Source: a virus
DNA length: 64,000 bases
Reading direction: 5' to 3' (one strand)
IMG/VR virus record: IMGVR_UViG_3300032288_005424
A program made the translations under genes and the position numbers. Under the pieces are notes generated by a model. It did no database searches. It worked only from the letters and a program-made list of their open reading frames with translations, and was not told the origin of the DNA. Positions 9,822 through 24,415 of this stretch are shown piece after piece. Each line of letters begins with the position of its first letter. Within the stretch, counting starts at the first letter, position 1.

Positions 9822-10214
9822 TTATATCTGGATTTCCGGATTTGGAGTTTCAAATCGGCGCTTGCGCATGATGGTCTTGAAGACCAGATCCTTTTCTGAA
9901 CCGTCCGGGTCCGCAACGACCTTGATCGGCACGTTGAGCCAGGTGGCCAGCTGCTTTAGCACTGCTTCGCTTTCGTCGGGCAGTTTCGCCAGTTTATGAC
10001 CGGCCTTGTCGAATGCTTTGAGTAGCAGGGTCTCAAGCTCATCATAGCTTACCTGGGCCCCATTACGGGCATCATTGACCCGGTCCTTGAAGTGAGAGGT
10101 GAAGACGACATCAAGTCCAATCTCATTGAAGTGATCGTCGGCGAATCGCTCAAGGTCCCTAAAGTCCTGAGCATCAAGCTCCTCATTGAGCCATTGGGTA
10201 AATGTCTTTATCAT
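9822..10214 (-). CDS. hypothetical protein with CTS-like N-terminus (GC-richer)
   Basis: MIKTFTQWLNEE; GC content well above the genome average. Confidence 0.5.
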   Translation of the reverse strand: MIKTFTQWLNEELDAQDFRDLERFADDHFNEIGLDVVFTSHFKDRVNDARNGAQVSYDELETLLLKAFDKAGHKLAKLPDESEAVLKQLATWLNVPIKVVADPDGSEKDLVFKTIMRKRRFETPNPEIQI

Positions 10215-10226
10215 AGAGGTTATCTT

Positions 10227-10565
10227 TTAAACCATGCCCCATGCAGCAACCATCTCAACCGTTGCATGGATGTTGGGCTCTTCACCATGAGAGTATTCCA
10301 TCAGTTGCTCGGCAGCGGCCTGCATCTCGTCCGAGTCATAGAGGTATTTTTGGTCGAACTCCTCGGACAGGGCTCTGAGACGTTGCTCAAGCTTTGTGAT
10401 CAGGTCCTGGACCTCCGGGTCTTGGCTGAAGTGTTCGCTGATCGCATCGAGGATCTCGTCACGGTCGGTCAGTTCAACCTGGTCGGTAAAGCCCATTGAG
10501 GCAAGTTCATCACTTTCCTCGGATTCCTTAATGTACTGGCCAATGCCCTTCACTAGTTGTTTCAT
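10227..10565 (-). CDS. acidic protein; higher-GC paralog of ORF 28764..29096
   Basis: MKQLVKGIGQYIKESEE; ELASMGFTDQVEL / DPEVQDLITKLEQRLRALSEEF align with ELRSMGFSDYSAP / DPEVNAAIDTLKSRFRELFAKH of the AT-rich paralog. Confidence 0.5.
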   Translation of the reverse strand: MKQLVKGIGQYIKESEESDELASMGFTDQVELTDRDEILDAISEHFSQDPEVQDLITKLEQRLRALSEEFDQKYLYDSDEMQAAAEQLMEYSHGEEPNIHATVEMVAAWGMV

Positions 10566-10658
10566 TTGTTATCGTGGTTATTTCAGGGTTTATTTATCAT
10601 CGCGCGCCCGGCCCCGCCTAGGGGGTTTTGTAGGCGGTGCAGGCACGCCCGTTTTTTG

Positions 10659-10672
10659 GGTACATTAAACTT
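10659..10672 (+). promoter_or_regulatory. class-2 -10-like box (TGgTACATT) ending 6 nt before the ATG
   Basis: TTTTTTGGGTACATTAAACTT then ATG; the same architecture recurs at 13709 and 29146. Confidence 0.4.
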
Positions 10673-10846
10673 ATGAAAGGACAGTTTATAATTATAGACC
10701 TCAGAACCATGGACTTCATGAAGAACGAGGAGGGCCGCATGAACTTCTATGATACGCTAGACGATGCTCTGCTTGTATGTGGAATGTATGAATTTGAAAA
10801 TGCATGGGTTGTCCAACTCGTCCATAACCATCAAGAAAGAGATTAG
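10673..10846 (+). CDS. small hypothetical protein
   Basis: 58-aa ORF starting at MKGQFIIIDL, directly after the TACATTAAAC box. Confidence 0.4.
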   Translation: MKGQFIIIDLRTMDFMKNEEGRMNFYDTLDDALLVCGMYEFENAWVVQLVHNHQERD

Positions 10847-10863
10847 AGAGATAAACCTAGAAG

Positions 10864-11283
10864 ATGACATTAGCAGAGCTACACGAACTTTGGCGGATGG
10901 GAATCATTGGAGACCAGGAACTCATCCGTATCCAGATAGACCGCATCATGGGCAAGAGCCAACACGCGGGGACCTGGACCGGCCATGGGCTTGAACTTGT
11001 CGGACTCCGAATAACCGATTCAACCGGCTTAGACTCCGGACTCCGGGTTGAAATGGAAGCCAAGGGACCGACCGCAACCCTGAAGGCCGGGGCATTTGGG
11101 CTCAAGAACAATCGGGTCCGGTGCGATTGTGTGGTTCCAACCTGGATGATGGAGAGTCCGGATACCCTAAAGAGCCTGCTTGAAAACCGGCTCATTGTTC
11201 TTTTTGGGCACTTTACCTCCGGGGGAGAATCTGGCCCCGGTAGAGGGACCGGCAAATACGACCCAATTACTGGCTACGTGTAG
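10864..11283 (+). CDS. hypothetical protein (GC-rich island)
   Basis: 139-aa ORF at ~60% GC; its 3' end overlaps the first copy of a ~40-bp direct repeat. Confidence 0.4.
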   Translation: MTLAELHELWRMGIIGDQELIRIQIDRIMGKSQHAGTWTGHGLELVGLRITDSTGLDSGLRVEMEAKGPTATLKAGAFGLKNNRVRCDCVVPTWMMESPDTLKSLLENRLIVLFGHFTSGGESGPGRGTGKYDPITGYV

Positions 11284-11808
11284 CCCAAGCCCGGGGGAGA
11301 ATCTCTAACCGGTAGAGAGCCGGCCCAAAATTTCAATTTTTAGGTCAATTGCGGAGACCGGGAAACCCTAGGACCCGTAGATACCGAAATTGGTCCGGGA
11401 AGCCTCCTCCTGGCCATGGGGATTTCGGAAAAAAGTAAAGTGCTGCGGCCGTCCTCCTGGAGTACTTTTATTACCTCGGCAAGGTCACTCCCGGGGCACC
11501 GCCAGGCAGCCTGGGGGCCACTACCGGGGTCACCTGGGGGCTACTACCGGAGTCAGCCAGGCACTGCCCTGGGGCTGCTCCTGGGGTCACTGCCCGGGTC
11601 ACAGTTCCCGGTTACCCAGACCGGTCCGGGGCAAGGTCCGCCGGGCCGAAACTTGCAAGCAGCCGGGCAGGCGGAACCTCGCGAGACCCGGCAGGTCTGT
11701 ACAGACCTGTCAGCAGACCTGTCAGACGTTGCGGTTGGCTGAACAGACGTTGCGGTTTGCGGGGTCAGATACCGCGGTCTAGCTCGGTCTCGAGAACCTG
11801 GAACCAGG
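11284..11808. repeat. GC-rich non-coding region with tandem imperfect direct repeats
   Basis: Direct repeat CCGGGGGAGAATCT..CCGGTAGAG.GCCGGC at 11221 and 11291; CTACCGGGGTCACCTGGGGG / CTACCGGAGTCAGCCAGG / CTCCTGGGGTCACTGCCCGGGTCAC; CAGACCTGTCAG x2; CAGACGTTGCGGTT x2. Confidence 0.5.
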
Positions 11809-12156
11809 TTGGAGTATAAGAAGTTATTACTTAAATCCAGAAAAAAGATGTTATTGGAAAGTTTAGTTGCAGAATTCTTCAGGATTCTCGAGCGGTCTGG
11901 TCGGGACTGGCACCGGATCCGTTGGGCAATCCGCGGGCTGGAATCCGAAATCCGGCGTAGTGCTCACGGCCAACCCTGGTCCGAGGAGCTTGAAGAATAC
12001 CTTATCTTCCGGATTGGGGAGGCGCTGACCATTGCCCAAAGGGCGGCTGTTGCAAGGGAGGAGTTTGAATGGGCGCATGAAATTGCGATCAGGCTCCGGG
12101 AACTTGGCCACGATTTAGAAAAAACCTTAATAGACAACAATGCAGAAACAGATTGA
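11809..12156 (+). CDS. hypothetical protein
   Basis: 115-aa ORF with intermediate GC. Confidence 0.4.
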   Translation: MEYKKLLLKSRKKMLLESLVAEFFRILERSGRDWHRIRWAIRGLESEIRRSAHGQPWSEELEEYLIFRIGEALTIAQRAAVAREEFEWAHEIAIRLRELGHDLEKTLIDNNAETD

Positions 12157-12157
12157 C

Positions 12158-12319
12158 ATGATAGACCTCATTCTCGAGCGGGCGCTGGACCGCCATGGTC
12201 TAATAGACTGGACTTGGATAGACCACGAACTCGCAAAGAAGGGAGCAACGGTTGAGAGACGGGTCTTACACAAGCGGGTCAAGGCTCTGCTCGCGACCAG
12301 GGCCAAACGGCGTTGGTAG
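12158..12319 (+). CDS. small basic hypothetical protein
   Basis: 53-aa ORF (MIDLILERALDRHGL...) whose ATG overlaps the upstream stop (TGACATG). Confidence 0.3.
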   Translation: MIDLILERALDRHGLIDWTWIDHELAKKGATVERRVLHKRVKALLATRAKRRW

Positions 12320-12360
12320 AATATAATAACCTATCTCTAAAAAAATAAAAGAAAAAGAAT

Positions 12361-12585
12361 ATGCAAAAACTAACAACCCTACTCGCGGCCCTGCTTCTTG
12401 CGGCTGGCCTTGCCTTTCTTGCCTCGGTAATAATTGCCTTTCCGGTCAAGTGGCTCTGGAACTGGTTGATTCCGGAAATTTTTACCGGCGTCAAACCGAT
12501 CTCGGCTCTACAGGCCTGGGGTCTCGTGTTCCTGCTTAACCTCATGATTCCGAACCGTAATCGGACCGAGAAGAAATCGGATTAA
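12361..12585 (+). CDS. small two-TM membrane protein
   Basis: TATAAT box at 12322-12327; two hydrophobic helices. Confidence 0.5.
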   Translation: MQKLTTLLAALLLAAGLAFLASVIIAFPVKWLWNWLIPEIFTGVKPISALQAWGLVFLLNLMIPNRNRTEKKSD

Positions 12586-12669
12586 CCCTAAAAAATTTAG
12601 GAAAAAAGACCCGGGATTTTTATTTCTCGGGTTTTTTTGTTATATTTGTATCATAAATCCAGTAAAGAT

Positions 12670-12831
12670 ATGTACACGTTAGATTGCAACTATTACCAAA
12701 AGGAATTCCGCACGGTCGCCGAACTCTTAACCGACGTTCTCGAGAGCGGTACCGATCCGAACTACGAAATTCTGCGCAACGGCCAACCGACCGGCGAAAC
12801 CGCATGGGACCTCATCGGCCCCGTTGCCTAG
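12670..12831 (+). CDS. small hypothetical protein
   Basis: Preceded by a hairpin plus T-run (12608-12640) and a TTATATTTG -7 box; start MYTLDCNYYQ. Confidence 0.4.
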   Translation: MYTLDCNYYQKEFRTVAELLTDVLESGTDPNYEILRNGQPTGETAWDLIGPVA

Positions 12832-12846
12832 CAAATTTTTCCTTAG

Positions 12847-12940
12847 CGATCCCAGCCCAAAAAGGTTGGGATTTTTTTTTTAAAAAAAGTGAAAATAAAT
12901 TTTTTTGTTTGAGAAATTTTGGTTATATTTGCTTTATCAA
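12847..12940 (+). promoter_or_regulatory. terminator-promoter cassette A (host sigma-A type)
   Basis: ATCCCAgcccaaaaaggTTGGGAT hairpin plus T-run, then AAAAAGTGAAAATAAATTTTTTTGTTTGAGAAATTTTGGTTATATTTGCTTTATCA (TTTG then TAnnTTTG). Confidence 0.6.
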
Positions 12941-12953
12941 ACTTCAACAAACC

Positions 12954-13427
12954 ATGCTTAATCACACCACATTTCCAGCCGCTCTCCTTGCCGGCAACTC
13001 CCGTCTCACCATCACCAATCCAGCGACCGGTCAATGGATCAAGGTCAAGATGAAGCGTCGCAAGGACCGCGAAACCGGCAAGCCGGGTAATTGCTACTTC
13101 CTGTCGCTTGCGCTCTTGCAGGACGGGGACCTTGGCCACCGCTACGTCGGAGCCTACTTCGCGGATTCGGGCCGATTCAAGCCGGGTCGCGATGCCTCGG
13201 CCAGAGAAGTTCAGATCGCCGAATTCCTGATCCGTGCCGTTCGTAATCCGCAACTGTTGCAGGCTGCAGAGATCGAGCACTGCGGTAAATGTTTTGCCTG
13301 CGGCCGGACCCTAACCGTGCCGGAAAGTATCCGCTCGGGCTGGGGACCTGAATGTTTTACCCGCCAGTTCGGAGACCTCAGCCTCCGACCGCTTGCCGAG
13401 TTCGGATTACTTGACCCAATCGGGTAA
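12954..13427 (+). CDS. hypothetical protein (GC-rich)
   Basis: 157 aa starting MLNHTTFPAALLAG, 14 nt after the -7 box; CxxC pair (HCGKCFACG). Confidence 0.5.
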   Translation: MLNHTTFPAALLAGNSRLTITNPATGQWIKVKMKRRKDRETGKPGNCYFLSLALLQDGDLGHRYVGAYFADSGRFKPGRDASAREVQIAEFLIRAVRNPQLLQAAEIEHCGKCFACGRTLTVPESIRSGWGPECFTRQFGDLSLRPLAEFGLLDPIG

Positions 13428-13708
13428 TCCGGCCCGGCCGGGGCCGGACTCCCTAGTAAAGAGTACAATAATTTCATTAATTAAAACCATAAAATCATGA
13501 AGAAGTTAATTCAAAGATTCCTATTCGGAACCCCAATCCAGGGCGAGACGGTTGACCTAAGCGTTGGCAAGCCCAGAATTCAGAGCACTTGCGAACCTGC
13601 GGAGAAGGCAAGCTTCAATGAGGTATTCCAAAACGTGCACCGCGAATTACAGGCCGCAGCCGCAGAACGACTTGGGGTCAGGGGATAATCCAATCCCTTC
13701 GAGGATTG

Positions 13709-13722
13709 GGTATATTAAACCT
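13709..13722 (+). promoter_or_regulatory. class-2 -10-like box (GGGTATATTAAAC) ending 6 nt before the ATG
   Basis: Same architecture as 10659 and 29146; preceded by hairpin CCAATCCcttcgaGGATTGG. Confidence 0.4.
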
Positions 13723-13980
13723 ATGAATACGCCCAATCAACCCGAAAAAGAAAAGATACTCTATGACCTAACCGGCTTAGCCGCCAGCCTGGTCGCCGGA
13801 GGAATCTCTAGAAATCAGCCCGATATTCTGCTCATAGGTAAGATCTTAACCGTAAGCATCGGAGCCCTGGACTCAGAAGCCGGCAAGGAGAAATTAGAAG
13901 AATTCCTTGTTCAGATTCACAATGCGAGAGAGGAAGAAGAAGAAGTGAGAAAGATGTTAAAAGACCTGGGTATTGGGTAA
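13723..13980 (+). CDS. hypothetical protein
   Basis: 85-aa ORF beginning MNTPNQPEKEK. Confidence 0.45.
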   Translation: MNTPNQPEKEKILYDLTGLAASLVAGGISRNQPDILLIGKILTVSIGALDSEAGKEKLEEFLVQIHNAREEEEEVRKMLKDLGIG

Positions 13981-14230
13981 GATAACAATAATAAAAGATT
14001 ACAACTGGTGGAGGAAGTAACAAGAGTTACCAACTGACTGGAGTAAAGGATTCTACGGGTAAAAAGTCAGAGCCCGCTTGAGAGAATCGTCGGAGCAACA
14101 CCGAACTCCACCGCAAAATGATAAATTGGTTTGGTTGATTGATTCAGCAATGGGAGACTCGCAAGGTCTCCTTTGTTGGTTATTGAGTATATTAGTAATT
14201 ATCATTAACTCCTAAATAAAAAGAACCCTT

Positions 14231-14383
14231 TATGAATCCATTAATTCAAACATTTAAAGTACTATACAACTACGCCAAAGAAGAACCTCGTGATTTCGTA
14301 TTATCAATCGCCTTCATGATATTAATGATATTCATTGTTTGGGCGAGCCTATGGGGTCATGCAATAATTAGCGGCACCGTTTA
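14231..14383 (+). CDS. small membrane protein
   Basis: 50-aa ORF with one TM helix (LSIAFMILMIFIVWASLW); TATATT box at 14187-14192. Confidence 0.3.
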
Positions 14384-14461
14384 AAATTTAGGACATGAAT
14401 AATAAAGACATAGTAATAGATGACGTCTTGATTGGATAGACATTAAATCAATAGATATACC

Positions 14462-14707
14462 ATGGAAAAAATAAGTTGGGAACCGGTAAAGGACAGACAC
14501 TGCCACGGCCGTTGCGAGCTAGGCGAGCTATGGATCCGTTTGGACCGTGAGGGTAAAGTAAGCGGAATATACACGATGTTCGGCGAGACCAAGAAATGGT
14601 GTCCGGAATCCGAGGAAGAAGAAACCCTTGTTGGAGCAAAGGTAATCTGCGAATTACTCTTAGCTGGCGAGATCGCGGCCAGAAAAATAGAGAAAATTAT
14701 TCAATAA
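14462..14707 (+). CDS. small hypothetical protein
   Basis: 81-aa ORF. Confidence 0.4.
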   Translation: MEKISWEPVKDRHCHGRCELGELWIRLDREGKVSGIYTMFGETKKWCPESEEEETLVGAKVICELLLAGEIAARKIEKIIQ

Positions 14708-14746
14708 AAATTGTCAGGTGTCAAGTTTCTGTATTATATTTACAAT

Positions 14747-14887
14747 ATGGAAAATAACAAAGACCTAAAACCAGAACCCAAACAGGAAAAGCCAGAACCT
14801 TGCAAGCACGAACGCTATTACATTGCGGTCCGCCACGTGAGCGGACTTGTTGTAAGAAGGTGTTCAATTTGCGGAGTGAGAGTTTAA
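14747..14887 (+). CDS. small zinc-ribbon-like protein
   Basis: 46-aa ORF (CKHERYY...CSICG) preceded by GTGTCAAGTTTCTGTATTATATTTACAAT promoter; shorter than the ORF-track cutoff. Confidence 0.35.
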   Translation: MENNKDLKPEPKQEKPEPCKHERYYIAVRHVSGLVVRRCSICGVRV

Positions 14888-14908
14888 TTAAGACATTATC
14901 CAAAGAGA

Positions 14909-15020
14909 GCCCGGCCAATGGTCGGGCTTTTTGTTAATAACTATGTTAATAACTTTTTTTAAAAAAAGTGAAAATAAATTTTTTGGTTTGAGAAATTTGT
15001 TTTATATTTGCTCTATCAAT
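14909..15020 (+). promoter_or_regulatory. terminator-promoter cassette B
   Basis: AGCCCGgccaatggtCGGGCT plus T-run, then AAAAAAAGTGAAAATAAATTTTTTGGTTTGAGAAATTTGTTTTATATTTGCTCTATCA. Confidence 0.6.
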
Positions 15021-15049
15021 TATCAATTAACCCTTAAAAAACCAAACTT

Positions 15050-15427
15050 ATGCAAATCCAATTAACCCACCAAGAATCAGAACAGATGTTCCACAACGCT
15101 CTTTGCAACGGCTTAGGCTACATGAGCGGCTACGGTCTAGAATTCGAGTACAGCGACGAGCAGTACAGCGCAGCAAAGACAAAACTTCAGAGCCCATGCT
15201 TCGAGGACGTGCTCATGCAAATCCTACGCGACGGCGGTAGTCTAACTTTCGTAGACGTTGAATGCGACGGCGAATACACTCGCTCGGTCTCGTTAGCTGA
15301 TGTCCACGACAGAGTTCAAAAAACTCCAGCTCGCTTCTTGTTAGACATGATCAATGAGAACGACGATGCTGAGACAGCGGATGTAATTCTACAGACGGTG
15401 TTCTTCGAAGAGATCATCTTCGGATAA
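15050..15427 (+). CDS. hypothetical acidic protein
   Basis: 125-aa ORF followed by a long GC-rich hairpin containing ACTCCCTAGT. Confidence 0.5.
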   Translation: MQIQLTHQESEQMFHNALCNGLGYMSGYGLEFEYSDEQYSAAKTKLQSPCFEDVLMQILRDGGSLTFVDVECDGEYTRSVSLADVHDRVQKTPARFLLDMINENDDAETADVILQTVFFEEIIFG

Positions 15428-15562
15428 TCCACGGCCAGCCGGCCGGGCCAGTAGGCCACTCCCTAGTACGGGTGGTCCGCTGGCCCGGACCTTTAGAGCC
15501 AAAACGGGGTCGGACTCCCTAGTAAAGAATTTAAAATCAATAACCAATTAAATCAAAAGATC

Positions 15563-15769
15563 ATGCAACAAGAAATAATTAAAACCTTAACTGAATTAAA
15601 AAGAAACAAGAAGTACATCGCGCTCTCGCTCCACCCAGCAATCGGTAACTCAACGATTTCCAAGGAGGATAACAGACTCTTCATCAACGAAGGTCGAGGC
15701 GGTAAGTGGGAAGGAGTATCGGAAAGTTTCTACGACGAGATGGTCGCTAAGTTCGATTCACGTAGCTAG
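15563..15769 (+). CDS. small hypothetical protein
   Basis: 68-aa ORF. Confidence 0.4.
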   Translation: MQQEIIKTLTELKRNKKYIALSLHPAIGNSTISKEDNRLFINEGRGGKWEGVSESFYDEMVAKFDSRS

Positions 15770-15780
15770 AAAATATTTTT

Positions 15781-15835
15781 CACAAAAGTGAAAATAAATT
15801 TTTTTGTTTAAGAAAAAAGTGTTATATTTACAATC
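15781..15835 (+). promoter_or_regulatory. promoter C (sigma-A type) for the sigma-factor gene
   Basis: CACAAAAGTGAAAATAAATTTTTTTGTTTAAGAAAAAAGTGTTATATTTACAATC. Confidence 0.55.
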
Positions 15836-15867
15836 TCAATTATTAATCAATCAAAAACCCAACAATT

Positions 15868-16587
15868 ATGTCAAAAAGATTTGAAACAGCGGATGGCCTA
15901 CCGCAATACTTCAAGAGTATTGAATCAGTTGCCAAACCACTAAGCAAGACGGAGGAGCTTGCGCTAGCGGATAGAATCCAAGCGGGAGACGAGCGCGCGC
16001 TCAATGCTCTGGTAACCGCGAATCTAAAGTTCGTCGTAACCCTTGCGAATAAGTTTATCGGTATGGGATTACCGATCGATGACTTGATTCAAGAAGGAAA
16101 CGCTGGTCTAATTGAAGCGGCTCGTAAGTTTACATCAGATAAGGATGTTAAGTTTATTACCTATGCCCAGTTCTGGATTCGCAAGCGCTTGAATCTTGCT
16201 CTTTGCGATTACGGCAGAATCGTTAGGCTTCCGGTAAATCAAGAGTACGACATTTACAAGCGCAAGATGAAGGGAGAAGAAATCAATCTCTCAACCGTAC
16301 AGATCGATAAGCCTGTTGGCGAGGACGGTGACAATACAATCGGCGATATAATGCTTCGTACAGACTTTGCCGATCCGTTCGAGAAGGAAGAAACCAATCG
16401 TGTCTTGACCAGATTACTTTCAAAGTTAAGACCGACCGAAAGGGAGATTGTTGAATTGTTTTACGGTCTCGTGGGAGATGGCCTTTCTACGAAAGAAATC
16501 GCAGAGCAAGTTGGAAAGACCCCAGCTGAAGTTAACCGCGCGTTGAAGGTCGCACGTGCACAAATGAGAAAGGAGGTAAGCAAATGA
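15868..16587 (+). CDS. sigma-70 family RNA polymerase sigma factor (regions 2, 3, 4)
   Basis: Region 2 (NLKFVVTLANKF...DDLIQEGNAGLIEAARKFTSDKDVKFITYAQFWIRKRL) and region 4 (TEREIVELFYGL...LSTKEIAEQVGKTPAEVNRALKVARAQMRK). Confidence 0.7.
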   Translation: MSKRFETADGLPQYFKSIESVAKPLSKTEELALADRIQAGDERALNALVTANLKFVVTLANKFIGMGLPIDDLIQEGNAGLIEAARKFTSDKDVKFITYAQFWIRKRLNLALCDYGRIVRLPVNQEYDIYKRKMKGEEINLSTVQIDKPVGEDGDNTIGDIMLRTDFADPFEKEETNRVLTRLLSKLRPTEREIVELFYGLVGDGLSTKEIAEQVGKTPAEVNRALKVARAQMRKEVSK

Positions 16588-16799
16588 ATACGATAGAACA
16601 CGCAAACACGATGGCTGCCATGGCAGTCGATATCCTCTACTCTGAGGGTGATCCATTCAAGGAGCCAATAGATAAATCAAGACTCCAGTGGGAGATTCGT
16701 CAGGCCACCCTGAAGAAACTTGTGACTGAAGATTCAGACCTATTGGACGAAGACGAATTCCAAGCCTGCGTTAATAACTCTAAAATTCAAAAGGCATGA
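16584..16799 (+). CDS. small hypothetical protein
   Basis: 71-aa ORF whose start overlaps the sigma-gene stop (ATGA). Confidence 0.4.
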   Translation: MNTIEHANTMAAMAVDILYSEGDPFKEPIDKSRLQWEIRQATLKKLVTEDSDLLDEDEFQACVNNSKIQKA

Positions 16800-17092
16800 G
16801 CGTAGTAAGAATAATAAACGATACGGTCCACCTGTTCGAGAATTCGGGTAACCTGATAAGAACCATAACAAGCGGCGCGGTCTCAGCACAGATCTCTCCT
16901 GACGAGAGTCGTATTGTGCTAGTCACGGAGTCAGGGACCGCCCAGCTTTGGGACGTAAGAGGTAATTACCTACAGGATATTACGAGCGGAGCGGTCGATG
17001 CCCGATTCTCAGGAGACCTAATCATCGTTACCAAAGAGTACGGGCCGGATGAAGTTAGGGATGGGCGAGGAAATCTGCTCAGAACAATTTAA
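16796..17092 (+). CDS. repeat-containing small protein
   Basis: Internal repeats GNLIRTITSGAVSAQ / GNYLQDITSGAVDAR / GNLLRTI. Confidence 0.4.
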   Translation: MSVVRIINDTVHLFENSGNLIRTITSGAVSAQISPDESRIVLVTESGTAQLWDVRGNYLQDITSGAVDARFSGDLIIVTKEYGPDEVRDGRGNLLRTI

Positions 17093-17094
17093 CC

Positions 17095-17145
17095 GGTCTA
17101 AAAATAAATTTTTCCGTTTAAGAAAAAAGTATTATATTTACAATC
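17095..17145 (+). promoter_or_regulatory. promoter D (sigma-A type)
   Basis: AAAAATAAATTTTTCCGTTTAAGAAAAAAGTATTATATTTACAATC. Confidence 0.55.
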
Positions 17146-17167
17146 TCAACCCTAAAAATTTAAAATC

Positions 17168-17425
17168 ATGCGCTACAAATTAGGAAACAAATGGTCAGAC
17201 AACTTTGATTACGATGGAATGCTCGAGACCGGAGCACAGGTTACGGAAGAAACCCCGCTTGCAGACCTGCAGAAATTGTTTGACTCTTTCGAAGATGTCA
17301 ATTACCACACGGAATCCGAGCCGCTATGGGAAGCCATACAGGGCAAGAAGGCCGGGCAAGAAGAATACTTCAAGAAGAATCTAGCAGAGTTCAAGGCTCG
17401 CTGCTCAGCCTGCCTAGCAGAGTAA
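17168..17425 (+). CDS. small hypothetical protein
   Basis: 85-aa ORF. Confidence 0.45.
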   Translation: MRYKLGNKWSDNFDYDGMLETGAQVTEETPLADLQKLFDSFEDVNYHTESEPLWEAIQGKKAGQEEYFKKNLAEFKARCSACLAE

Positions 17426-17450
17426 AAGAATCTATCAAGAAAAAACAAAA

Positions 17451-17482
17451 GGGACCGAGGGTTAATCTTTCGGTCCCTTTTT
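17451..17482 (+). terminator. rho-independent terminator
   Basis: GGGACCGAgggttaatctTTCGGTCCC plus T-run, followed by a double TATAAT box (17485-17495). Confidence 0.6.
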
Positions 17483-17529
17483 AGTATAATATAATAGAGC
17501 CTAATTGGGTAAAAATAAATAATCAAACC

Positions 17530-17793
17530 ATGTCAGACCTAAATAAGTATTCCAAAATCCTGCTAGACCTCGTCTATCTTAGACAGACGGACTACGACGC
17601 TTTCATGAATCGCCTGTACGAAGCCTTGACCGGCGAGTTCAAGGATGTAATCAATGATTCAACCCCGGTCGAGGAGAAGTCTCAAGCAATATGGACCATG
17701 ATCAAGCATTTTGAAAAGAACGAAGAATTCGAGAAGTGCGCCGACCTGAAGAAATTAGCGGATCAATTACCTAAATCAAAAGATCATGTGTAA
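17530..17793 (+). CDS. small hypothetical protein (EEFEKCADL motif)
   Basis: 87-aa ORF sharing a motif with 2466..2663. Confidence 0.45.
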   Translation: MSDLNKYSKILLDLVYLRQTDYDAFMNRLYEALTGEFKDVINDSTPVEEKSQAIWTMIKHFEKNEEFEKCADLKKLADQLPKSKDHV

Positions 17794-17864
17794 GGTAATC
17801 CTAATAGTCGCAGCTTTCGTGTTGATTGAAGAATGGATCGTTCGCAAGAAAGCCTAAAACTTTT

Positions 17865-17925
17865 TTTGAAAAAAGTTTAAAATAAATTTTTTGGTTTCGC
17901 GGATTTTTGTTATATTTGCTCTATC
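17865..17925 (+). promoter_or_regulatory. promoter E (sigma-A type)
   Basis: TTTTTTTGAAAAAAGTTTAAAATAAATTTTTTGGTTTCGCGGATTTTTGTTATATTTGCTCTATCA. Confidence 0.55.
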
Positions 17926-17949
17926 ATTAACCAACTAAAATTTTAAATC

Positions 17950-18336
17950 ATGCAGAAATTAATTCTAGTCCGCTTCGGAAATCAACCGAACCCAATCGTC
18001 TCAATGGCTTTAAAACCCCATCTCGTTGGCAACGCGTTCGCCGGTCCAATCCCGGGCGCGATCATGTCGGTCTTTAACACCGAGTCCACGAAAGAGGAGA
18101 TCGCTGAAGACCTCAAAGAAACAGGTGCCTACTTCATGCTAATGCGAGCTGATGAAGCCACAATCAATCTTCCGGAAGAGTTGATGGAAGTAATTGCGCA
18201 AATCGTCGGTGAGGAACCTGGACGCGCGACAGACTCCAGTGAATTGACTATTGATGATATATTGGACCTCATCAACAAGAACGGTATTGAGTCCCTAACG
18301 CCCGAACAGAGACGTATCCTGGATAATCGCCATTAG
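17950..18336 (+). CDS. hypothetical acidic protein
   Basis: 128-aa ORF. Confidence 0.45.
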   Translation: MQKLILVRFGNQPNPIVSMALKPHLVGNAFAGPIPGAIMSVFNTESTKEEIAEDLKETGAYFMLMRADEATINLPEELMEVIAQIVGEEPGRATDSSELTIDDILDLINKNGIESLTPEQRRILDNRH

Positions 18337-18377
18337 GCGATTATCCCACTGTTAAATATAATCTAAACCCCATTTAT

Positions 18378-18593
18378 ATGAAGGAGATTGTAAGACTATA
18401 CTTATACACGGACGGCAAGGAAACTTGTATTAAAGACCCGCAAGAGATGATAAGACTTCTTTCAGACCCGCAGGAAGAAATAGACCTGGATTACCATGAT
18501 GCGAGAGGTTTCGCAAAGGTTGCAACCAGCAAAGACCTGATTGGAGAGACCGTCCAGGTTGGAGAAGTAGAGATTACTATTATTAACCATTAA
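18378..18593 (+). CDS. small protein, tandem paralog 1
   Basis: IRLLSDPQEEIDL...DLIGETVQVGEVEITII. Confidence 0.45.
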   Translation: MKEIVRLYLYTDGKETCIKDPQEMIRLLSDPQEEIDLDYHDARGFAKVATSKDLIGETVQVGEVEITIINH

Positions 18594-18605
18594 TCGAATT
18601 AGACC

Positions 18606-18830
18606 ATGCAAACACCAATAAACATTATAGATTGTATCGAGACCGTGGACAATTGGGGAGGTCAAGAAAAGTATTCAACTCAAGAAACGTTCAGACTCTT
18701 AAGTAATCCGGACGAATGGACAGACGACCAAATCTTTCGCGGCCCTGCTGGCGAGAGGTATTTTATAGACGACCTCATCGGAAAGAAAGTCACAGTCGGT
18801 CCAATGACATTTACCGTTCAAGAAGACTAA
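18606..18830 (+). CDS. small protein, tandem paralog 2
   Basis: FRLLSNPDEWTDD...DLIGKKVTVGPMTFTV, similar to 18378..18593. Confidence 0.45.
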   Translation: MQTPINIIDCIETVDNWGGQEKYSTQETFRLLSNPDEWTDDQIFRGPAGERYFIDDLIGKKVTVGPMTFTVQED

Positions 18831-18867
18831 AGATATTTCGAGAAATCGAGATTGGCGACAGGCTAAG

Positions 18868-18955
18868 GCTGCTCAGAAACGGGCAGCTTTTTTTTTGAAA
18901 AAAGTTTAAAATAAATTTTTTAGTGTCAAGTTTTTGTTGTATATTTGCTCTATCA
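18868..18955 (+). promoter_or_regulatory. terminator-promoter cassette F
   Basis: GCTGCtcagaaacggGCAGC plus T9, then GAAAAAAGTTTAAAATAAATTTTTTAGTGTCAAGTTTTTGTTGTATATTTGCTCTATCA. Confidence 0.6.
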
Positions 18956-18980
18956 TTAACCACCTAAATTATTAATCAAC

Positions 18981-19499
18981 ATGGCAAAGAAAATCCAAAC
19001 CACCGAACGCGCTAGCGGAACCTCATTCCACGGAACAGAATTCAGAGCGAGCGCAAACGAAATTATTGCAATCCTTGGCGAACCAACATACAATGACAAC
19101 AACGGCAGAGATAAGGTAAATCTTGAATGGGTATGCGAGACGGACGAAGGAGACGTCTTTACGATCTACGATTGGAAAGAGTATCGTCAAATCGGAATGG
19201 ACGAAAAGATTGATTGGCATATCGGAGGACACAGCGGCCGAGTAACTAAGAAGGCTGTGATGGAGCTTGAGAAGTTTGGAGTGAAGCCTTTGGAAGATAT
19301 GCTATCATTTAACGAATTTTTAAAAGAATCCAAAAAGCACAAACTAAGTATAGGCGATTTGATTGAATTTGATAACGCCGAAGCTAGAATTTATAATGTT
19401 TATACGACTAGAGGCGGTAAAGCCATGTACACAGTCGGCAGCTCAAAACATGGAACCATTGAGATTGAAGCCGAAGACATAGAAAAACAGATAAGGTAG
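18981..19499 (+). CDS. hypothetical protein
   Basis: 172-aa ORF. Confidence 0.5.
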   Translation: MAKKIQTTERASGTSFHGTEFRASANEIIAILGEPTYNDNNGRDKVNLEWVCETDEGDVFTIYDWKEYRQIGMDEKIDWHIGGHSGRVTKKAVMELEKFGVKPLEDMLSFNEFLKESKKHKLSIGDLIEFDNAEARIYNVYTTRGGKAMYTVGSSKHGTIEIEAEDIEKQIR

Positions 19500-19517
19500 A
19501 TTGATTGGATTACAGAA

Positions 19518-19605
19518 GCTGCTCAGAAATGGGCAGCTTTTTTTTTGAAAAAAGTTTAAAATAAATTTTTTTATTTGAGAAATTTGTTGTATATTTACAC
19601 TGTCA
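19518..19605 (+). promoter_or_regulatory. terminator-promoter cassette G (no ORF directly downstream)
   Basis: GCTGCtcagaaatggGCAGC plus T9, then GAAAAAAGTTTAAAATAAATTTTTTTATTTGAGAAATTTGTTGTATATTTACACTGTCA; about 100 nt follow without an ORF before the next cassette. Confidence 0.5.
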
Positions 19606-19708
19606 ATCAAACACTGACGGGACGGTTCGGAACAAGGAAGCGGGAGGTATACTCCGACCTGCACCAGACCTAGCGAGTTGTTAACAACCGAATGTTAATA
19701 ACTTTTTT

Positions 19709-19765
19709 TAAAAAAAGTGAAAATAAATTTTTTGGTTTGAGAAATTTGTTTTATATTTACAATCT
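19709..19765 (+). promoter_or_regulatory. promoter H (sigma-A type)
   Basis: AAAAAAAGTGAAAATAAATTTTTTGGTTTGAGAAATTTGTTTTATATTTACAATC. Confidence 0.55.
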
Positions 19766-19777
19766 AAATTAATCAAT

Positions 19778-20035
19778 ATGCCAACATCATTTCAACCAAT
19801 CGAAGCCCAAACATTACGGGCACAACTACAGACAGGAATTGTAAAATTCTTTTTTGTAAAAAAGGACGGCTCACTTCGTGAAGTCCAAGGAACCACCAAC
19901 TTACGCCACGTGCCGGCCGACAAACATCCTCAAGGCGTACGTCAAACCCCACCAAGCGTTATCACCTTCTGGGATCTCCTAGCGGGCGATTGGCGCAGTG
20001 CGAAAGTAGAAACTCAATTCTTTATTAACCCCTAA
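19778..20035 (+). CDS. small hypothetical protein
   Basis: 85-aa ORF. Confidence 0.45.
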   Translation: MPTSFQPIEAQTLRAQLQTGIVKFFFVKKDGSLREVQGTTNLRHVPADKHPQGVRQTPPSVITFWDLLAGDWRSAKVETQFFINP

Positions 20036-20047
20036 ACCCCACACATC

Positions 20048-20233
20048 ATGGTAACACAAGAAGCAATAGATGAAGCAATCAAAATATTCGGCGAGGACGT
20101 CGTTTATCAAGCAATGGAAGTCGTAGCAATGTCGGATCCCGATGGAGCCTACGCAATGTTCGAGGACATGGGCCAATTCGAAATGGCTGAAGCTGTAGAG
20201 TTTCTTTATTTCGACGGCTCTGCTGACGACTAA
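20048..20233 (+). CDS. small acidic protein
   Basis: 61-aa ORF. Confidence 0.4.
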   Translation: MVTQEAIDEAIKIFGEDVVYQAMEVVAMSDPDGAYAMFEDMGQFEMAEAVEFLYFDGSADD

Positions 20234-20283: not shown

Positions 20284-21414
20284 ATGCAAGAACGTATCGG
20301 TAAAAAAGAATTAGTAGTAAGAGACTTCTTTGAAGCTCAACACGGTGGTCGCGTGCCGCAACTAACCGTTCAACAATTGTACACCCAATTCATGACGCAG
20401 TCGACGGACGCCTCGGGCATCTCGTACGGTCTCTTCAATGGGGTAATCAAGAAGCTGCGCTTCGAAACGGGAGACTCCCTAGTCCCAGGCCCAGGCCAAA
20501 GCACGATAGCTAGAGCCACGGCTGGAGCACAGGCTGACTCCGTAGTAGAAATCAGCGATGAACCCGAGATCTTCGAGATTGGCTCAATGGAGTTTCCTAA
20601 CTTCCGCAAGTTCAAGACCGGCTCGGTGTTCGATCAATTAATGTCGGATCATGACGAGGCCGGCGGTATTTTCTCGGGCACGGCTAATATTGTAATCGGC
20701 GAGTCAGGTGTAGGTAAGTCAACCGTAACCTTGGACATGCTTGCCAAGATCAAGCAGCAGGACCCAACCGCCAAGATCTTGTACATCTCAAGCGAAATGA
20801 CTCGTAACGATCTATTCTTCTATTACAGAAAGATGCCGATCATCGAGACCATTCCTACTCTCTTGGTAATGGATTACCTAATGGGTCGTTTCGATAAGAC
20901 CTTAGAGAAGGCGATCAACGGCGACTATGACGTTATCCTAATTGACTCTCACCAAGACATTATTGTCAAGCTGAAAGACGTGCTTGGCTGGAAGTCTACC
21001 AAGGCCGAGACATGGTTAACCAACCTGATTATCGAAGCCGCTGACAAGAAAGGTAAAGCAATCTTCGCGATCCAACACATGACTAAGGGCGGTGAGTATG
21101 TCGGTTCAACCTACCTCAAGCACGCCACGACCTCAATGATGGAGATCAAGTTCGACGACGCGGGTCGCAGGTTCGTAGAGTTCTCGAAGAACCGCCGAGG
21201 CGGTAGCCTAGTCGGCAAGCGCTTGTACTACTCCCTAGTCCAAGGTGAGGTACGTTGGGACGAGGCCGCATGGAGACAGGAGACCGTGGTTAGCGAGTTG
21301 GCCGAGCAAGAGTCAGAACGCCGCCAACACTTGGAGGGCCAGTTCAACTCTCTGTTCCTAAGCGTTAAGAGACCCCAAACTGATGCAGAGAACGCTGAAA
21401 CTGCAGCAGAATAG
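20284..21414 (+). CDS. RecA-superfamily ATPase, RadA/Sms-like
   Basis: Walker A VIGESGVGKSTVTL; KNRRGG resembles the RadA KNRFG motif; hydrophobic strand plus D (ILIDSHQD) as Walker B; two GC-rich patches with ACTCCCTAGT. Confidence 0.5.
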   Translation: MQERIGKKELVVRDFFEAQHGGRVPQLTVQQLYTQFMTQSTDASGISYGLFNGVIKKLRFETGDSLVPGPGQSTIARATAGAQADSVVEISDEPEIFEIGSMEFPNFRKFKTGSVFDQLMSDHDEAGGIFSGTANIVIGESGVGKSTVTLDMLAKIKQQDPTAKILYISSEMTRNDLFFYYRKMPIIETIPTLLVMDYLMGRFDKTLEKAINGDYDVILIDSHQDIIVKLKDVLGWKSTKAETWLTNLIIEAADKKGKAIFAIQHMTKGGEYVGSTYLKHATTSMMEIKFDDAGRRFVEFSKNRRGGSLVGKRLYYSLVQGEVRWDEAAWRQETVVSELAEQESERRQHLEGQFNSLFLSVKRPQTDAENAETAAE

Positions 21415-21470: not shown

Positions 21471-22589
21471 ATGATAAGCCAATCAGAATTCAATCAGATC
21501 AAATCAGACCTAAGCGGCAACGACCCCTTGGTAAAGCGAGTGAAGTTGTCAGACATCCAGTTGGACGACAACTCAATCAAACATAACCACATCGAGATCG
21601 AGGGATCACGAGTTCCGGTGTCGGATAAGTTCTTCAATCGTCTGGGCCAGATGGTAAACATCAACACCGGCCTAATCACGAAGATGAATAAGAACTCGGA
21701 CAAGGAGATCGAGACCAAGCTCTTACAGGCGGTTAAGTCCTATTCAGAAACCCGTGATGGTAATAAAGAGTTTCTCTTAATCGGCGACTCTACGAGCCAT
21801 CAGGTAACCAACATCGTGAAGGGAGACAAGTATAACAGATTATCTAATGATACGCTGTTCGCTACCGCAGAGACCATCCTAAACGAGATCCCGGACATGC
21901 ACGTTGAGTCAATCGACCGTGGCGGTCCAGGCGGATTATCCATTAACATGATCCATGGCAGCCAGATAGGTTACGAGAAGATCGGTAAGGACGAGGTATT
22001 CCGTTTCGGTATCTCTCTTGTAAACGGCCAGACAGTAAGCCGAGTTGACGACTTCTTCTATCGCTTGGCCTGTGCCAACGGAGCGGTAGCTCGCAACATG
22101 GACACCGCGTTCCAATTCGGTCAGGGTCAGGACGCCTTCCGCAAGTTGCTCGAGCAGATGCAAGGTTGGGCAAAGAACGGCTTCGTACCTAAGACCTTCC
22201 AAGACAGGTTGGAAAGAGCCATGACCACCAAGGCAAGCTACTCAGAATTGGAGAGAGCCTTGTACTCAGTAACCGGTGCAATCCAAGAGAACGACCCTAA
22301 CTTCAAGGCCCACTTGATCAAGAACGCAGAGTCTCAATTCTTTCCAGAGTTCGATGCAACCACGAAGCGTATCTTCCGTAAGGGTTACAATCCGCTACAG
22401 TTGACAGACGCTCAAAAGAAGTTCATCAAGACAGATGCTACAATCTGGGACGTTGTTAACGAGTTGACATGGATCGGTTCTCACGATACTGTCTTCAACT
22501 TAAAGAACCATAAAGGTTTCAAGGTAGAGGGTGGTAATCTATTCGCTAAGAGCTGGGATCTAGAACACGCAGGTCTAGCTACAATCTAA
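21471..22589 (+). CDS. hypothetical protein
   Basis: 372-aa ORF; TATATT box at 21440-21445. Confidence 0.5.
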   Translation: MISQSEFNQIKSDLSGNDPLVKRVKLSDIQLDDNSIKHNHIEIEGSRVPVSDKFFNRLGQMVNINTGLITKMNKNSDKEIETKLLQAVKSYSETRDGNKEFLLIGDSTSHQVTNIVKGDKYNRLSNDTLFATAETILNEIPDMHVESIDRGGPGGLSINMIHGSQIGYEKIGKDEVFRFGISLVNGQTVSRVDDFFYRLACANGAVARNMDTAFQFGQGQDAFRKLLEQMQGWAKNGFVPKTFQDRLERAMTTKASYSELERALYSVTGAIQENDPNFKAHLIKNAESQFFPEFDATTKRIFRKGYNPLQLTDAQKKFIKTDATIWDVVNELTWIGSHDTVFNLKNHKGFKVEGGNLFAKSWDLEHAGLATI

Positions 22590-22618
22590 GCCTTAAACAA
22601 ACTATCTATAACCGGAAA

Positions 22619-22648
22619 GGGGTCCTCACAAGGGACCCCTTTTTTTTG
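22619..22648 (+). terminator. rho-independent terminator
   Basis: GGGGTCCtcacaaGGGACCCC plus T9. Confidence 0.65.
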
Positions 22649-22761
22649 TGTTTAGTAAAACCTTAAACTCAATCCAAGTATAAGACTACTGTAGCTGATT
22701 AAACAGCTTTTCATTTTTACGACTGATGGATGGGCTTCCTAATAAGGAGCCCATTCGTCGT

Positions 22762-22905
22762 TTAGCCCTGGCCGACATTGCGCTTCACGTAGTTCTTGGA
22801 GCTCTTGTTGTTAGAGGTCTTAGACTTCGCGTGCACGCCGGGCCTGCTCACTTTAGTCTTTAGTCTAAAGGTCGAGGCAGCCGAGGTTTTAGTTGATTTA
22901 GCCAT
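22762..22905 (-). CDS. small Lys-rich basic protein (47 aa)
   Basis: MAKSTKTSAASTFRLKTKVSRPGVHAKSKTSNNKSSKNYVKRNVGQG read from the minus strand inside the GC-rich island; possibly a DNA-binding protein. Confidence 0.3.
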   Translation of the reverse strand: MAKSTKTSAASTFRLKTKVSRPGVHAKSKTSNNKSSKNYVKRNVGQG

Positions 22906-23035
22906 TGAGAGATTATGATTTATTGTTATTTAACCCAAAAACCGTGCCTCCCCCGGTGAGCTCTGGAGTTGAGCCCCCAGGCCATGGGGATTCGGGTCAC
23001 AAGTACCTTCATCGCCCCCAAATAAATAAACCAGT

Positions 23036-23485
23036 ATGACAAAGACACTAGCGCAAAAGGATTTAGACTTCATCAGATTCTGCATAGCAGAATTAGGGAT
23101 AACCACCGCTCCCAACATCAGGGTCGGGGATGACCACTCAAAGGCCCAAGACCGGAGAGCAATGGGTTACTACAGTCCCAAGGATAATTACATTTGGGTG
23201 CTAAGGGGCCAGCGAATCCCGGCTGACTGGTACCGAACCCTAGCCCATGAGCTTGTGCATTGGCGCCAACGCGAAGAGGGTAAGCCATTGGACGGGGCGG
23301 ACGGTAGCGAGATCGAGAATGAAGCTAACTCCAAGGCAGCGGTGCTCCTACGCGAATGGGGCCGCCGTTACGAACACATTTACGTGCTGGACGAGGACGA
23401 GCCCCAGATTCCAGTAGGCACTGACCTGCCTTTCGATGGCGGTGGTAGCCTGGCCGGCGAGCCAATGGTTCCATTCTCTCTCTAA
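23036..23485 (+). CDS. HExxH motif protein (putative Zn peptidase, ImmA/IrrE-like?)
   Basis: LAHELVHW motif; ~58% GC; converges on and overlaps the recombinase gene by 4 nt. Confidence 0.4.
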   Translation: MTKTLAQKDLDFIRFCIAELGITTAPNIRVGDDHSKAQDRRAMGYYSPKDNYIWVLRGQRIPADWYRTLAHELVHWRQREEGKPLDGADGSEIENEANSKAAVLLREWGRRYEHIYVLDEDEPQIPVGTDLPFDGGGSLAGEPMVPFSL

Positions 23486-24400: not shown

Positions 24401-24415
24401 GGTATACTAGCCTAT
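24401..24415 (+). promoter_or_regulatory. class-2 box GGTATACTAG 7 nt before a 29-aa membrane peptide ORF
   Basis: GGTATACTAGCCTAT then ATG (24416) MKRAGIRFDWAWPIVLVVVLASIIIFFIA. Confidence 0.35.

Follow-up and report, generated by a model that had tools for sequence, protein, structure and literature searches.

Repeated cassettes resembling host sigma-A early promoters, often joined to a terminator, in an uncultured jumbo phage with a probable Bacteroidota host

Early arrays that are read by host RNA polymerase and followed by a phage sigma cascade are exemplified by gene 28 of SPO1 and by the early promoters of T4, with their A-rich upstream regions. Another described class of repeated phage regulatory unit is the PeSL elements, whose indel behavior has been followed in the phage pairs phi1/RB49, T4/PST, and KVP40/nt-1 (Arbiol et al. 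2010, PMC2839356; Comeau et al. 2014, PMC4122927). The promoters of the Bacteroidota primary sigma factor, sigma-A, have been characterized in Flavobacterium johnsoniae, where T-12, A-11, T-8, T-7, T-6, and G-5 are nearly invariant, G is shunned at -10 and -9, and transcription starts 4-5 nt past the box, with a faint -33 element, blocks of AT-rich sequence at -18 and -28, and a mean leader length of 33 nt (PMC6847099); F. psychrophilum has the same box at -12 to -5 (PMC9723704). Here we describe a family of repeated cassettes in a 64,000-nt stretch of viral DNA (IMG/VR record IMGVR_UViG_3300032288_005424; the whole stretch is hereafter the window). We favor the reading, with a probability of roughly 0.75, that these are host sigma-A early promoters, often with a terminator, that double as recombination substrates in a Bacteroidota jumbo phage; promoter activity, sigma identity, early timing, UP-element function, and the recombination mechanism we infer from sequence. 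In the literature that we searched, there is no description of repeated regulatory cassettes in Bacteroidota phages.

A repeat finder returned a single family of 80-nt direct repeats with eight members, all on the plus strand (at 12872, 14951, 15771, 17081, 17859, 18888, 19538, and 19700), each 60-88% identical to the reference copy over 80 nt; across copies the unit measures 60-80 nt (~70 nt). The pattern AAAATAAATTTTT-N19-TATATTTR, with up to three mismatches allowed, matches precisely these eight sites, each with no more than two mismatches and all on the plus strand, versus a chance expectation of 0.00 (100 dinucleotide-preserving shuffles), and the eight-copy unit of the original prediction is real. 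Its description of the copies as near-identical was overstated, given the 60-88% identities, and only the pairs B/H, with a 66-nt exact stretch in common, and F/G, with 5' halves identical at 54/55 nt, are very close. A motif search of the whole window, which had been proposed as a check, was also run, using a profile hidden Markov model made from the eight full cassettes and applied to both strands. It recovers all eight (E = 1e-13 to 1e-17) together with two eroded copies, at 14708-14748 (E = 0.011) and 12617-12656 (E = 4.5), and finds no credible cassette in the other ~56 kb of the window on either strand. All 10 copies are confined to 12.6-19.8 kb of the 64 kb, and the eight full cassettes are all intergenic and on the same strand. 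The copies, with the open reading frames (ORFs) that some of them are predicted to drive, are as follows.

12603-12656, plus strand: degenerate cassette 0, with a terminator hairpin (12603-12638) abutting the -7 box TATATTTG (12641-12648); found by terminator scan, weak profile match.
12848-12942, plus strand: cassette A, with GC hairpin (12848-12873) and T10, A-run and AAAATAAATTTTT, and -7 box TATATTTG (12924-12931).
14708-14748, plus strand: partial cassette of the GTGTCAA type, without the upstream A/T block; -7 box TATATTTA (14735-14742).
14904-15020, plus strand: cassette B, with GC hairpin (14904-14932), two copies of GTTAATAAC (14933-14941 and 14945-14953), a T7/A7 run, and -7 box TATATTTG (15003-15010).
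15774-15840, plus strand: cassette C, without terminator; -7 box TATATTTA (15823-15830); predicted driver of the sigma-factor operon.
17087-17151, plus strand: cassette D, 5'-truncated and without terminator; -7 box TATATTTA (17133-17140); predicted driver of ORF 17168-17425.
17859-17928, plus strand: cassette E, with a T7 run and no adjacent hairpin; -7 box TATATTTG (17911-17918).
18865-18957, plus strand: cassette F, with GC hairpin (18865-18890) and T9; -7 box TATATTTG (18940-18947); predicted driver of ORF 18981-19499.
19514-19608, plus strand: cassette G, with GC hairpin (19514-19541) and T9; -7 box TATATTTA (19590-19597); predicted driver of a non-coding RNA, with no ORF.
19701-19768, plus strand: cassette H, with a GTTAATAAC box (19694-19702) and -7 box TATATTTA (19752-19759); 66 nt in common with B.

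All eight full cassettes have a -7 box, TATATTT(G/A), at a fixed position. T-12, A-11, T-8, T-7, and T-6 are present in eight of eight, there is no G at -10 or -9, and every copy agrees with the Bacteroidota element TAHHTTTG at seven of its eight positions, with -5 as the exception. The unit had been said always to end in TAnnTTTG, which is so for A, B, E, and F (TATATTTG) and fails for C, D, G, and H (TATATTTA). Reading toward the box, most copies have a T-run, after which come an A-run (about -53 to -49), AAAATAAA (-44 to -37), and T6 (-36 to -31), with phased A-tracts spanning about -57 to -37 in an UP-like arrangement. A box GT(G/T)T(C/G/A)A(A/G) occupies -29 to -23, and the spacer beyond it is variable, with T or A predominating near -18. 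Within the window, the GTGTCAA form of this box is found only in cassette F and the partial copy, the others having GTTTGAG or GTTTAAG. Predicted leaders are 14-35 nt, A/T-rich, and without a Shine-Dalgarno sequence, and an ORF start does follow each cassette except G, with box-to-ATG gaps of 18-39 nt rather than the 20-35 nt first given. A sigma-70 -35/-10 reading was tried and rejected, with 19 sites versus 12.9 +/- 3.9 expected in the region and no -10 hexamer at the box of any full cassette.

The associated hairpins are more varied than the GC hairpin plus T-run that was thought usually to precede the unit. That description applies to A, B, F, and G, the only full cassettes preceded by hairpins of -17 to -23.5 kcal/mol with a T-run directly after; H is preceded by an AU-rich 12-bp hairpin with U7 (its inclusion widens the range to -14 to -23.5 kcal/mol), and C, D, and E have none. 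Altogether, six copies have a predicted stem-loop terminator (12603 and cassettes A, B, F, G, and H) and the other four, C, D, E, and 14708, have none, the hairpin and T-run sites being 12603-12638, 12848-12873, 14904-14932, 18865-18890, and 19514-19541, plus the AU-rich 19675-19704 with U7. The motif GTTAATAAC occurs four times in the window (0.52 expected) and is associated with two of the eight cassettes, B and H. It is found upstream of cassettes in many relatives, and in one of them (L040) before nearly each one, usually armless, so that in L040 GTTAATAAC is a sequence motif and not a hairpin. We considered GTTAATAAC as a terminator arm, which holds at H, but most copies in relatives have no complementary arm.

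Relatives were identified by probing IMG/VR with the phage sigma factor encoded behind cassette C, which gave 29 related loci with 37-95% identity, many of them on contigs of 250-271 kb; the window is evidently part of an uncultured jumbo phage of this ~250-270-kb clade. By profile, the window and 14 related genomes (65-95% sigma identity) contain 80 cassettes, 71 of them distinct and 79 of 80 on the strand of the sigma gene. In the logo of the 71 cassettes, T-36, T-35, T-33, T-26, and T-10 are invariant, T-28, A-9 (70/71), and C-4 are invariant or nearly so, and none of these positions was imposed by the cassette selection rule. The A/T-rich upstream block of the original prediction is present, with A-53 to A-49, AAAATAAA (-44 to -37), and T6 conserved across the 71, as is GTGTCAA (-29 to -23); positions -19 to -15 are T/A-rich, and 44 of the 71 have an A 5 nt past the box. 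The phage sigma gene of most relatives is preceded, at a distance of 35-45 nt, by a cassette. The partial cassette 14708-14748 is kept in two relatives, L025 and L024, and the L025 ortholog of cassette 0 (6220-6288) is a full cassette, 43 nt of that site being missing from the window. A scan of IMG/VR with AAAATAAATTTTT-N19-TATATTT gave more than 80 viral stretches among the matches listed, many outside the sigma-defined clade, and the same scan with N20 spacing, one base off, gave 23 single matches that are attributable to chance and serve as an accidental control. The cassette promoter architecture may thus be widespread among Bacteroidota phages.

The arrays of L025 (91% identity over aligned columns) and L024 were set against that of the window, both per module and in a global alignment. 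Seven indels of at least 40 nt distinguish the window from L025, and six of these fall in or beside cassettes, with cassettes and terminators together making up ~15% of the compared region. A 650-nt unit (18863-19512), consisting of ORF172 and one terminator-plus-cassette, is missing from both L025 and L024, which have a single cassette there. The module concerned is:

18958-19513, plus strand: insertion module with the 172-aa ORFan ORF172 (18981-19499), flanked by the direct repeat 18868-18922 / 19518-19572.

The two arms of this repeat are identical at 54/55 nt. Because ORF172 has no relative in IMG/VR, it is classed as an ORFan, and spread of its module between genomes is not demonstrable. 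In place of the single window cassette B, L025 has two cassettes enclosing an additional module of ~300 nt (m4), and L024 has an additional 497-nt module (m8) between two cassettes at the position of cassette E; these and the 650-nt ORF172 module are the ones with cassettes on both sides. In addition, module 14749-14951 is missing from L024, and an L025 cassette precedes the ortholog of ORF 15563-15769, where the window is without one. The cassettes appear to mark points of gain and loss of small genes, and recombination between copies is the probable mechanism.

A plausible scheme is that host RNA polymerase with its primary sigma factor (sigma-A, of the Bacteroides type) would start transcription at each cassette right after infection, ~5 nt past the box, while the terminator half would shield each unit from read-through. 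The products would be ~24 small early proteins, the phage sigma factor, and one small RNA, and the phage sigma factor would then presumably redirect transcription to later genes. The 55-66-nt near-exact direct repeats could serve as substrates for homologous recombination, by which promoter-plus-gene modules would be inserted, deleted, or swapped in a PeSL-like manner. We favor use of the host sigma factor because the -7 box matches and because the phage sigma gene itself lies behind a cassette, here and in relatives, so that this copy at least must be read by the host holoenzyme; given their common architecture, the remaining cassettes would probably be used by this enzyme as well. The earlier interpretation as an early promoter array read by host sigma-A is thus supported, with promoter activity as a prediction. 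Conservation throughout the clade, the probable part of the cassettes as recombination boundaries, and the predicted RNA gene after cassette G go beyond that interpretation.

Several observations nonetheless weigh against this interpretation. The phage encodes its own sigma factor, and it is for this reason that use of the host factor is something we infer. At -5, A replaces G in four of the eight full cassettes of the window, and over the whole clade the split is 34 A to 37 G among 71 cassettes. The upstream TTTG that had been reported is formed by T6 and the G that follows it in five cassettes (A, B, C, E, and H), ending 16-17 bp (or 12 bp) before the -7 box, and at that place it is absent from D, F, and G. 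The canonical spacing between TTTG and the -7 box is ~19-21 bp. Both GTGTCAA and GTTAATAAC are strongly conserved and match no known Bacteroidota promoter element, and their conservation suggests an additional factor. Cassettes C, D, and E lack a hairpin and lie 8-21 nt after the upstream stop codon, so that the term terminator-promoter is a misfit for them. Lastly, orthologous cassettes are usually closer to each other than are paralogous ones (the exceptions being B/H and E), so that ongoing homogenization between copies is probably limited; concerted evolution of the paralogous cassettes, which we had considered, gains little from this pattern.

The main alternative is that the cassettes are promoters for the phage sigma factor itself (15868-16587), forming a middle or auto-amplifying regulon in which T6 and GTGTCAA are read by region 4. 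The protein is group 1/2-like with regions 2 and 4, the cassettes have conserved boxes not typical of Bacteroidota and an A at -5 in half of them, and TAnnTTTG promoters are scarce elsewhere, an ORF start lying no more than 80 nt downstream for just 7 of the 55 motif copies, three of these seven being cassettes. However, the sigma gene is directly behind a cassette of the same family, here and in relatives, the -7 box fits the host-type element at seven of eight positions in every copy, and a different motif, AAATAAATAA, which is enriched at non-array genes, is a better candidate for recognition by the phage sigma factor; we thus regard the alternative as unlikely. A second proposal, that GTTAATAAC, the A/T tracts, and GTGTCAA are operators for a phage or host repressor or activator, giving an early shut-off switch on weak promoters, draws on the conservation of GTGTCAA (-29 to -23) and GTTAATAAC beyond what a spacer needs, and on the enrichment of GTTAATAAC in the window and its presence, mostly armless, upstream of nearly every L040 cassette. 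It is quite unlikely as a replacement for the promoter reading, with GTGTCAA in the window only at F and the partial copy, and GTTAATAAC at two of eight cassettes and forming, at H, the 3' arm of the RNA terminator; we note that it is compatible with host sigma-A promoters and not exclusive of them.

It is also conceivable that the repeats are mainly recombination or mobility elements (similar to miniature inverted-repeat transposable elements, or site-specific sites) whose likeness to promoters is incidental. Indel breakpoints do fall at cassettes, and there is a serine recombinase gene nearby (23482-24270), but 79 of 80 cassettes keep the same strand and the same placement with respect to start codons, conservation peaks on the promoter elements, and the repeats flanking modules are the cassettes themselves, as homologous recombination predicts. 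Moreover, there are only direct repeats, and no terminal inverted repeats or target-site duplications were noted, although no dedicated search for them was made. We consider this explanation very improbable, and retain that of host sigma-A promoters that are secondarily used in recombination.

The behavior of cassette G warrants consideration, as it has no ORF before cassette H, in accord with the original prediction; no plausible ORF exists in the 92 nt that separate the two. Taking the RNA start as 5 nt past the cassette G -7 box, the transcript predicted here is:

19602-19709, plus strand: predicted ~105-nt non-coding RNA, with core GGTATACTCCGACCT (19646-19660) and a 12-bp AU-rich terminator hairpin (19675-19704) with U7.

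The 92-nt G-H module is the best kept in the array (96.7% identical to L025, versus ~89-95% for its neighbors) and is duplicated in L024. Of the 15 distinct related genomes retrieved by way of the sigma gene, 10 have a homolog of the RNA, over sigma identities from 95% down to 60%, and the 15-nt core alone is found in four more (L031, L038, L042, and L043/L044; down to ~65% sigma identity). Each homolog has a -7 box upstream, and most have a GTTGTTAACA...TGTTAATAAC hairpin and T-run downstream. The invariant core, GGTA(T/G)ACTCCGACCT (GGTAKACTCCGACCT), occurs once or twice per locus and always on the plus strand, with a single copy in the window. The window RNA folds at -27.4 kcal/mol (z = -2.1). 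There are two RNA subtypes with the core common to both, and in the second (sister) subtype, one base pair of the hairpin beside the core (alignment columns 11-25) is AU in five sequences, CG in five, and GC in one. Pairing in the core helix is 100%, none of 500 shuffles attains the covariation score, and the signal collapses in slid controls. Structural support is weaker in the window's own subtype than in the sister subtype. A single fold for both subtypes was rejected, as RNAalifold gave little on mixed alignments and covariation is clear only in the second-subtype hairpin. A search of Rfam (4227 families; gathering cutoff and E <= 1) gave no match to the RNA, and only tRNAs and three sub-threshold chance matches to small RNAs were found. 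We conclude that 19602-19709 is a putative small RNA gene of no named family, because it has its own predicted promoter and terminator, no ORF, high conservation, and covariation in the sister subfamily. We also observed a second paralog of the RNA core (L031:6660-6760, L035:7540-7640, L040:3860-3960, and others), which follows a terminator hairpin and not a -7 box and starts with GGTTCGATCC, resembling a tRNA T-arm.

The other features of the array and its downstream unit are as follows.

12670-12831, plus strand: 53-aa ORF downstream of degenerate cassette 0.
12954-13427, plus strand: ORF with DUF6011, with further ORFs downstream, predicted to be driven by cassette A.
14747-14887, plus strand: 46-aa ORF, with its ATG (14747) 4 nt past the -7 box of the partial cassette.
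15050-15427 and 15563-15769, plus strand: ORFs predicted to be driven by cassette B.
15868-16587, plus strand: phage sigma-70-family sigma factor with regions 1.2, 2, and 4; first gene behind cassette C.
16584-16799 and 16796-17092, plus strand: ORFs next after the sigma-factor gene.
17950-18336, 18378-18593, and 18606-18830, plus strand: ORFs predicted to be driven by cassette E.
19778-20035 (WYL_2), 20048-20233, 20284-21414 (P-loop ATPase), and 21471-22589, plus strand: ORFs predicted to be driven by cassette H.
22619-22639, plus strand: terminator hairpin closing the cassette H unit, followed by T8.

Most of the ORFs flanked by cassettes have no Pfam or PHROG function, and the gene content of the array and its downstream unit would suit an early region, comprising small ORFs of unassigned function together with a phage sigma factor and an ATPase of helicase-like type. 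The 4-nt gap between box and ATG predicts that the mRNA of the 46-aa ORF (14747-14887) would be leaderless or nearly so. The sigma factor matches Pfam Sigma70_r2 (3.8e-13) and r4 (2.7e-08) and phrog_351 (1.8e-47), and in the PDB it matches SigA, RpoD, and RpoS. Derivation of the phage protein from a Bacteroidota sigma-A was considered, but the structure and NCBIfam comparisons are not discriminating, the SigA structures 8x6f, 7l7b, and 7ckq being followed by SigA, RpoS, and RpoD with similar scores.

Two other motifs are over-represented in the window. AAATAAATAA has nine copies where 0.59 would be expected; they stand 5-25 nt ahead of start codons on their own strand and for the most part away from the array. 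The motif has AAATAAAT in common with the -43 to -36 block of the cassettes; it may be a second promoter class, perhaps for the phage sigma factor, or a translation signal. ACTCCCTAGTA occurs eight times with up to one mismatch (0.58 expected), all on the plus strand. Its intergenic copies lie directly after GC-rich hairpins (13428-13447 and 15430-15513), and in relatives a hairpin with ACTCCCTAGTA stands just upstream of cassettes, at the place of the terminator; ACTCCCTAGTA may be a 3'-end or RNA-processing signal. The motif scan places them at:

647, 7312, and 9072, minus strand: AAATAAATAA.
17513, 23020, 26012, 29945, 33057, and 62243, plus strand: AAATAAATAA.
13448, 15458, 15514, and 23917, plus strand: ACTCCCTAGTA, exact.
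20474, 20537, 21230, and 24304, plus strand: ACTCCCTAGTA, with one mismatch.

Because the promoter motif is itself taken as a host signature, the argument from motif to host is circular on its own, and the assertion that the cassettes confirm a Bacteroidota host does not stand in that form; the host phylum is, however, backed by three independent lines. Shine-Dalgarno-like 4-mers precede 8% of 110 ORF starts, versus 16% at random positions, and positions -20 to -1 are A-rich and G-poor, in the style of non-Shine-Dalgarno initiation described for Flavobacterium (PMC6847099). ORF 49455-51380 encodes a 641-aa protein with a cohesin domain and a C-terminal type A sorting domain of the type IX secretion system (Pfam Por_Secre_tail, 2.1e-08; NCBIfam TIGR04183, 35.1 bits versus a cutoff of 23), which implies export via type IX secretion of the host and would make it a host marker. 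Outside the Bacteroidota and lineages closely related to them, type IX secretion is not known to occur. The only close match of the phage sigma factor in a bacterial genome (78% identity) is on a 254-kb contig, with nine cassettes in 12.7 kb and the RNA core, that was binned in a metagenome-assembled genome of an 'uncultured Bacteroidetes bacterium'; such binning is weak as host evidence but also points to Bacteroidota. Taken together, Shine-Dalgarno depletion, the sorting domain, and the binned relative support a predicted Bacteroidota host.

The window also encodes large and medium subunits of a T4-like topoisomerase II, whose best matches are uncultured phage records of 635-642 kb (56% identity), with Prevotella Lak phages at 37%. 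Megablast of 12-22 kb gave no match to cultured phages, and blastn of cassette B gave only chance matches of 26-31 nt. Elsewhere in the window there are five tRNA genes (Ser-tga, Phe, Lys, Met, and Trp; 59979-60064 and 63585-63989), four of which cluster at the window end, and auxiliary genes for a histone-deacetylase-family protein (1481-2527), a non-specific DNA/RNA endonuclease (6644-7306), and a ribose-phosphate pyrophosphokinase (45680-46633). A GC-rich island at 22000-26000 (0.52-0.53 versus ~0.41) includes an IS607-like serine recombinase (ORF 23482-24270, minus strand) with a MerR-type helix-turn-helix and a resolvase domain; a search of 185,579 bacterial species genomes gave no relatives of this recombinase. 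Another GC-rich stretch, 10000-12600 (0.535; GC-rich 10-14 kb), in which ORFs overlap on both strands and a 38-nt repeat is present at 11219 and 11291, ends at the array start. Imperfect 27-nt tandem-like repeats at 53600-53950 (families D4 and D10) correspond to a Ser/Gly/Thr-rich stretch of ORF 53061-54695.

More broadly, Bacteroidota phage transcription signals are almost uncharted, and this locus with its 71 related copies gives a position-resolved logo of a putative phage promoter class for the unusual Bacteroidota sigma-A, which could be of use for annotating early regions, for predicting hosts of uncultured phages, and as promoter and terminator parts for engineering Flavobacterium or Bacteroides. 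A tentative extension, which we judge somewhat less likely than not, is that an undescribed Bacteroidota jumbo-phage clade has a self-contained early regulon with the cassettes as its common cis-element, in which a phage factor would read GTTAATAAC and GTGTCAA and time shut-off, the repeats would shuffle genes, and a new small RNA family with the core GGTAKACTCCGACCT would act on a host or phage target during takeover. If true, a phylum without Shine-Dalgarno-based initiation would gain its first described PeSL-like system and conserved family of phage small RNAs. The findings would extend the PeSL idea of regulatory repeats as gene-shuffling engines beyond T4-type phages of Proteobacteria, and the conserved small RNA is a candidate early effector. 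Current views are not overturned; this is a well-supported new instance with some new features.

Among described systems, the cassettes share with Bacteroidota sigma-A promoters (-33 TTTG and -7 TAnnTTTG/TAHHTTTG; PMC6847099, PMC9723704, PMC2483708) the TA at -12/-11, TTT at -8 to -6, the absence of G at -10/-9, AT-richness at about -18 and -28, leaders of tens of nucleotides without Shine-Dalgarno sequences, and TAAAA-like A-rich stretches before the ATG. They differ in the A at -5 in half of the copies, in the 16-17 bp between TTTG and box, in their long and strongly conserved A/T block, and in GTGTCAA, which has no described counterpart. The predicted RNA resembles early phage small RNAs from host-type promoters in being short, with its own promoter and intrinsic terminator, kept in relatives, and without an ORF, although it has no sequence or structure match in Rfam. 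The likeness to the host-polymerase early arrays of SPO1 and T4 lies in the clustering of strong host-type promoters (predicted here) and in the phage sigma gene among the early genes, whereas the host phylum and promoter grammar are different and the temporal class here is a prediction.

The resemblance to PeSL elements (PMC2839356, PMC4122927) is extensive. Both are composite intergenic units of up to ~100 nt that combine a host primary-sigma promoter (predicted here), an upstream AT-rich block, and a stem-loop terminator (here predicted, and at six of the ten copies), both are repeated many times in a hyperplastic region rich in small ORFans, and in both an ORFan between two cassettes corresponds to one cassette in close relatives. 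Some PeSL copies have the stem-loop inside the promoter, as do 12603-12648 and the RNA promoters of relatives here. Mini-circles from recombination of neighboring cassettes are a feature of PeSL. Unlike PeSL, the present cassettes use the Bacteroidota -7 grammar and not sigma-70 -35/-10, their 3' end has a start codon but no Shine-Dalgarno sequence (as expected with a Bacteroidota host), and they carry the extra boxes GTTAATAAC and GTGTCAA, with one cassette predicted to drive an RNA gene. They also belong to an uncultured jumbo clade whose likeness to T4 is known only from the topoisomerase II subunits. In kind, then, this appears to be a PeSL-like early promoter-terminator system, in which the Bacteroidota grammar, the phage clade, the extra boxes, and the embedded small RNA are new.

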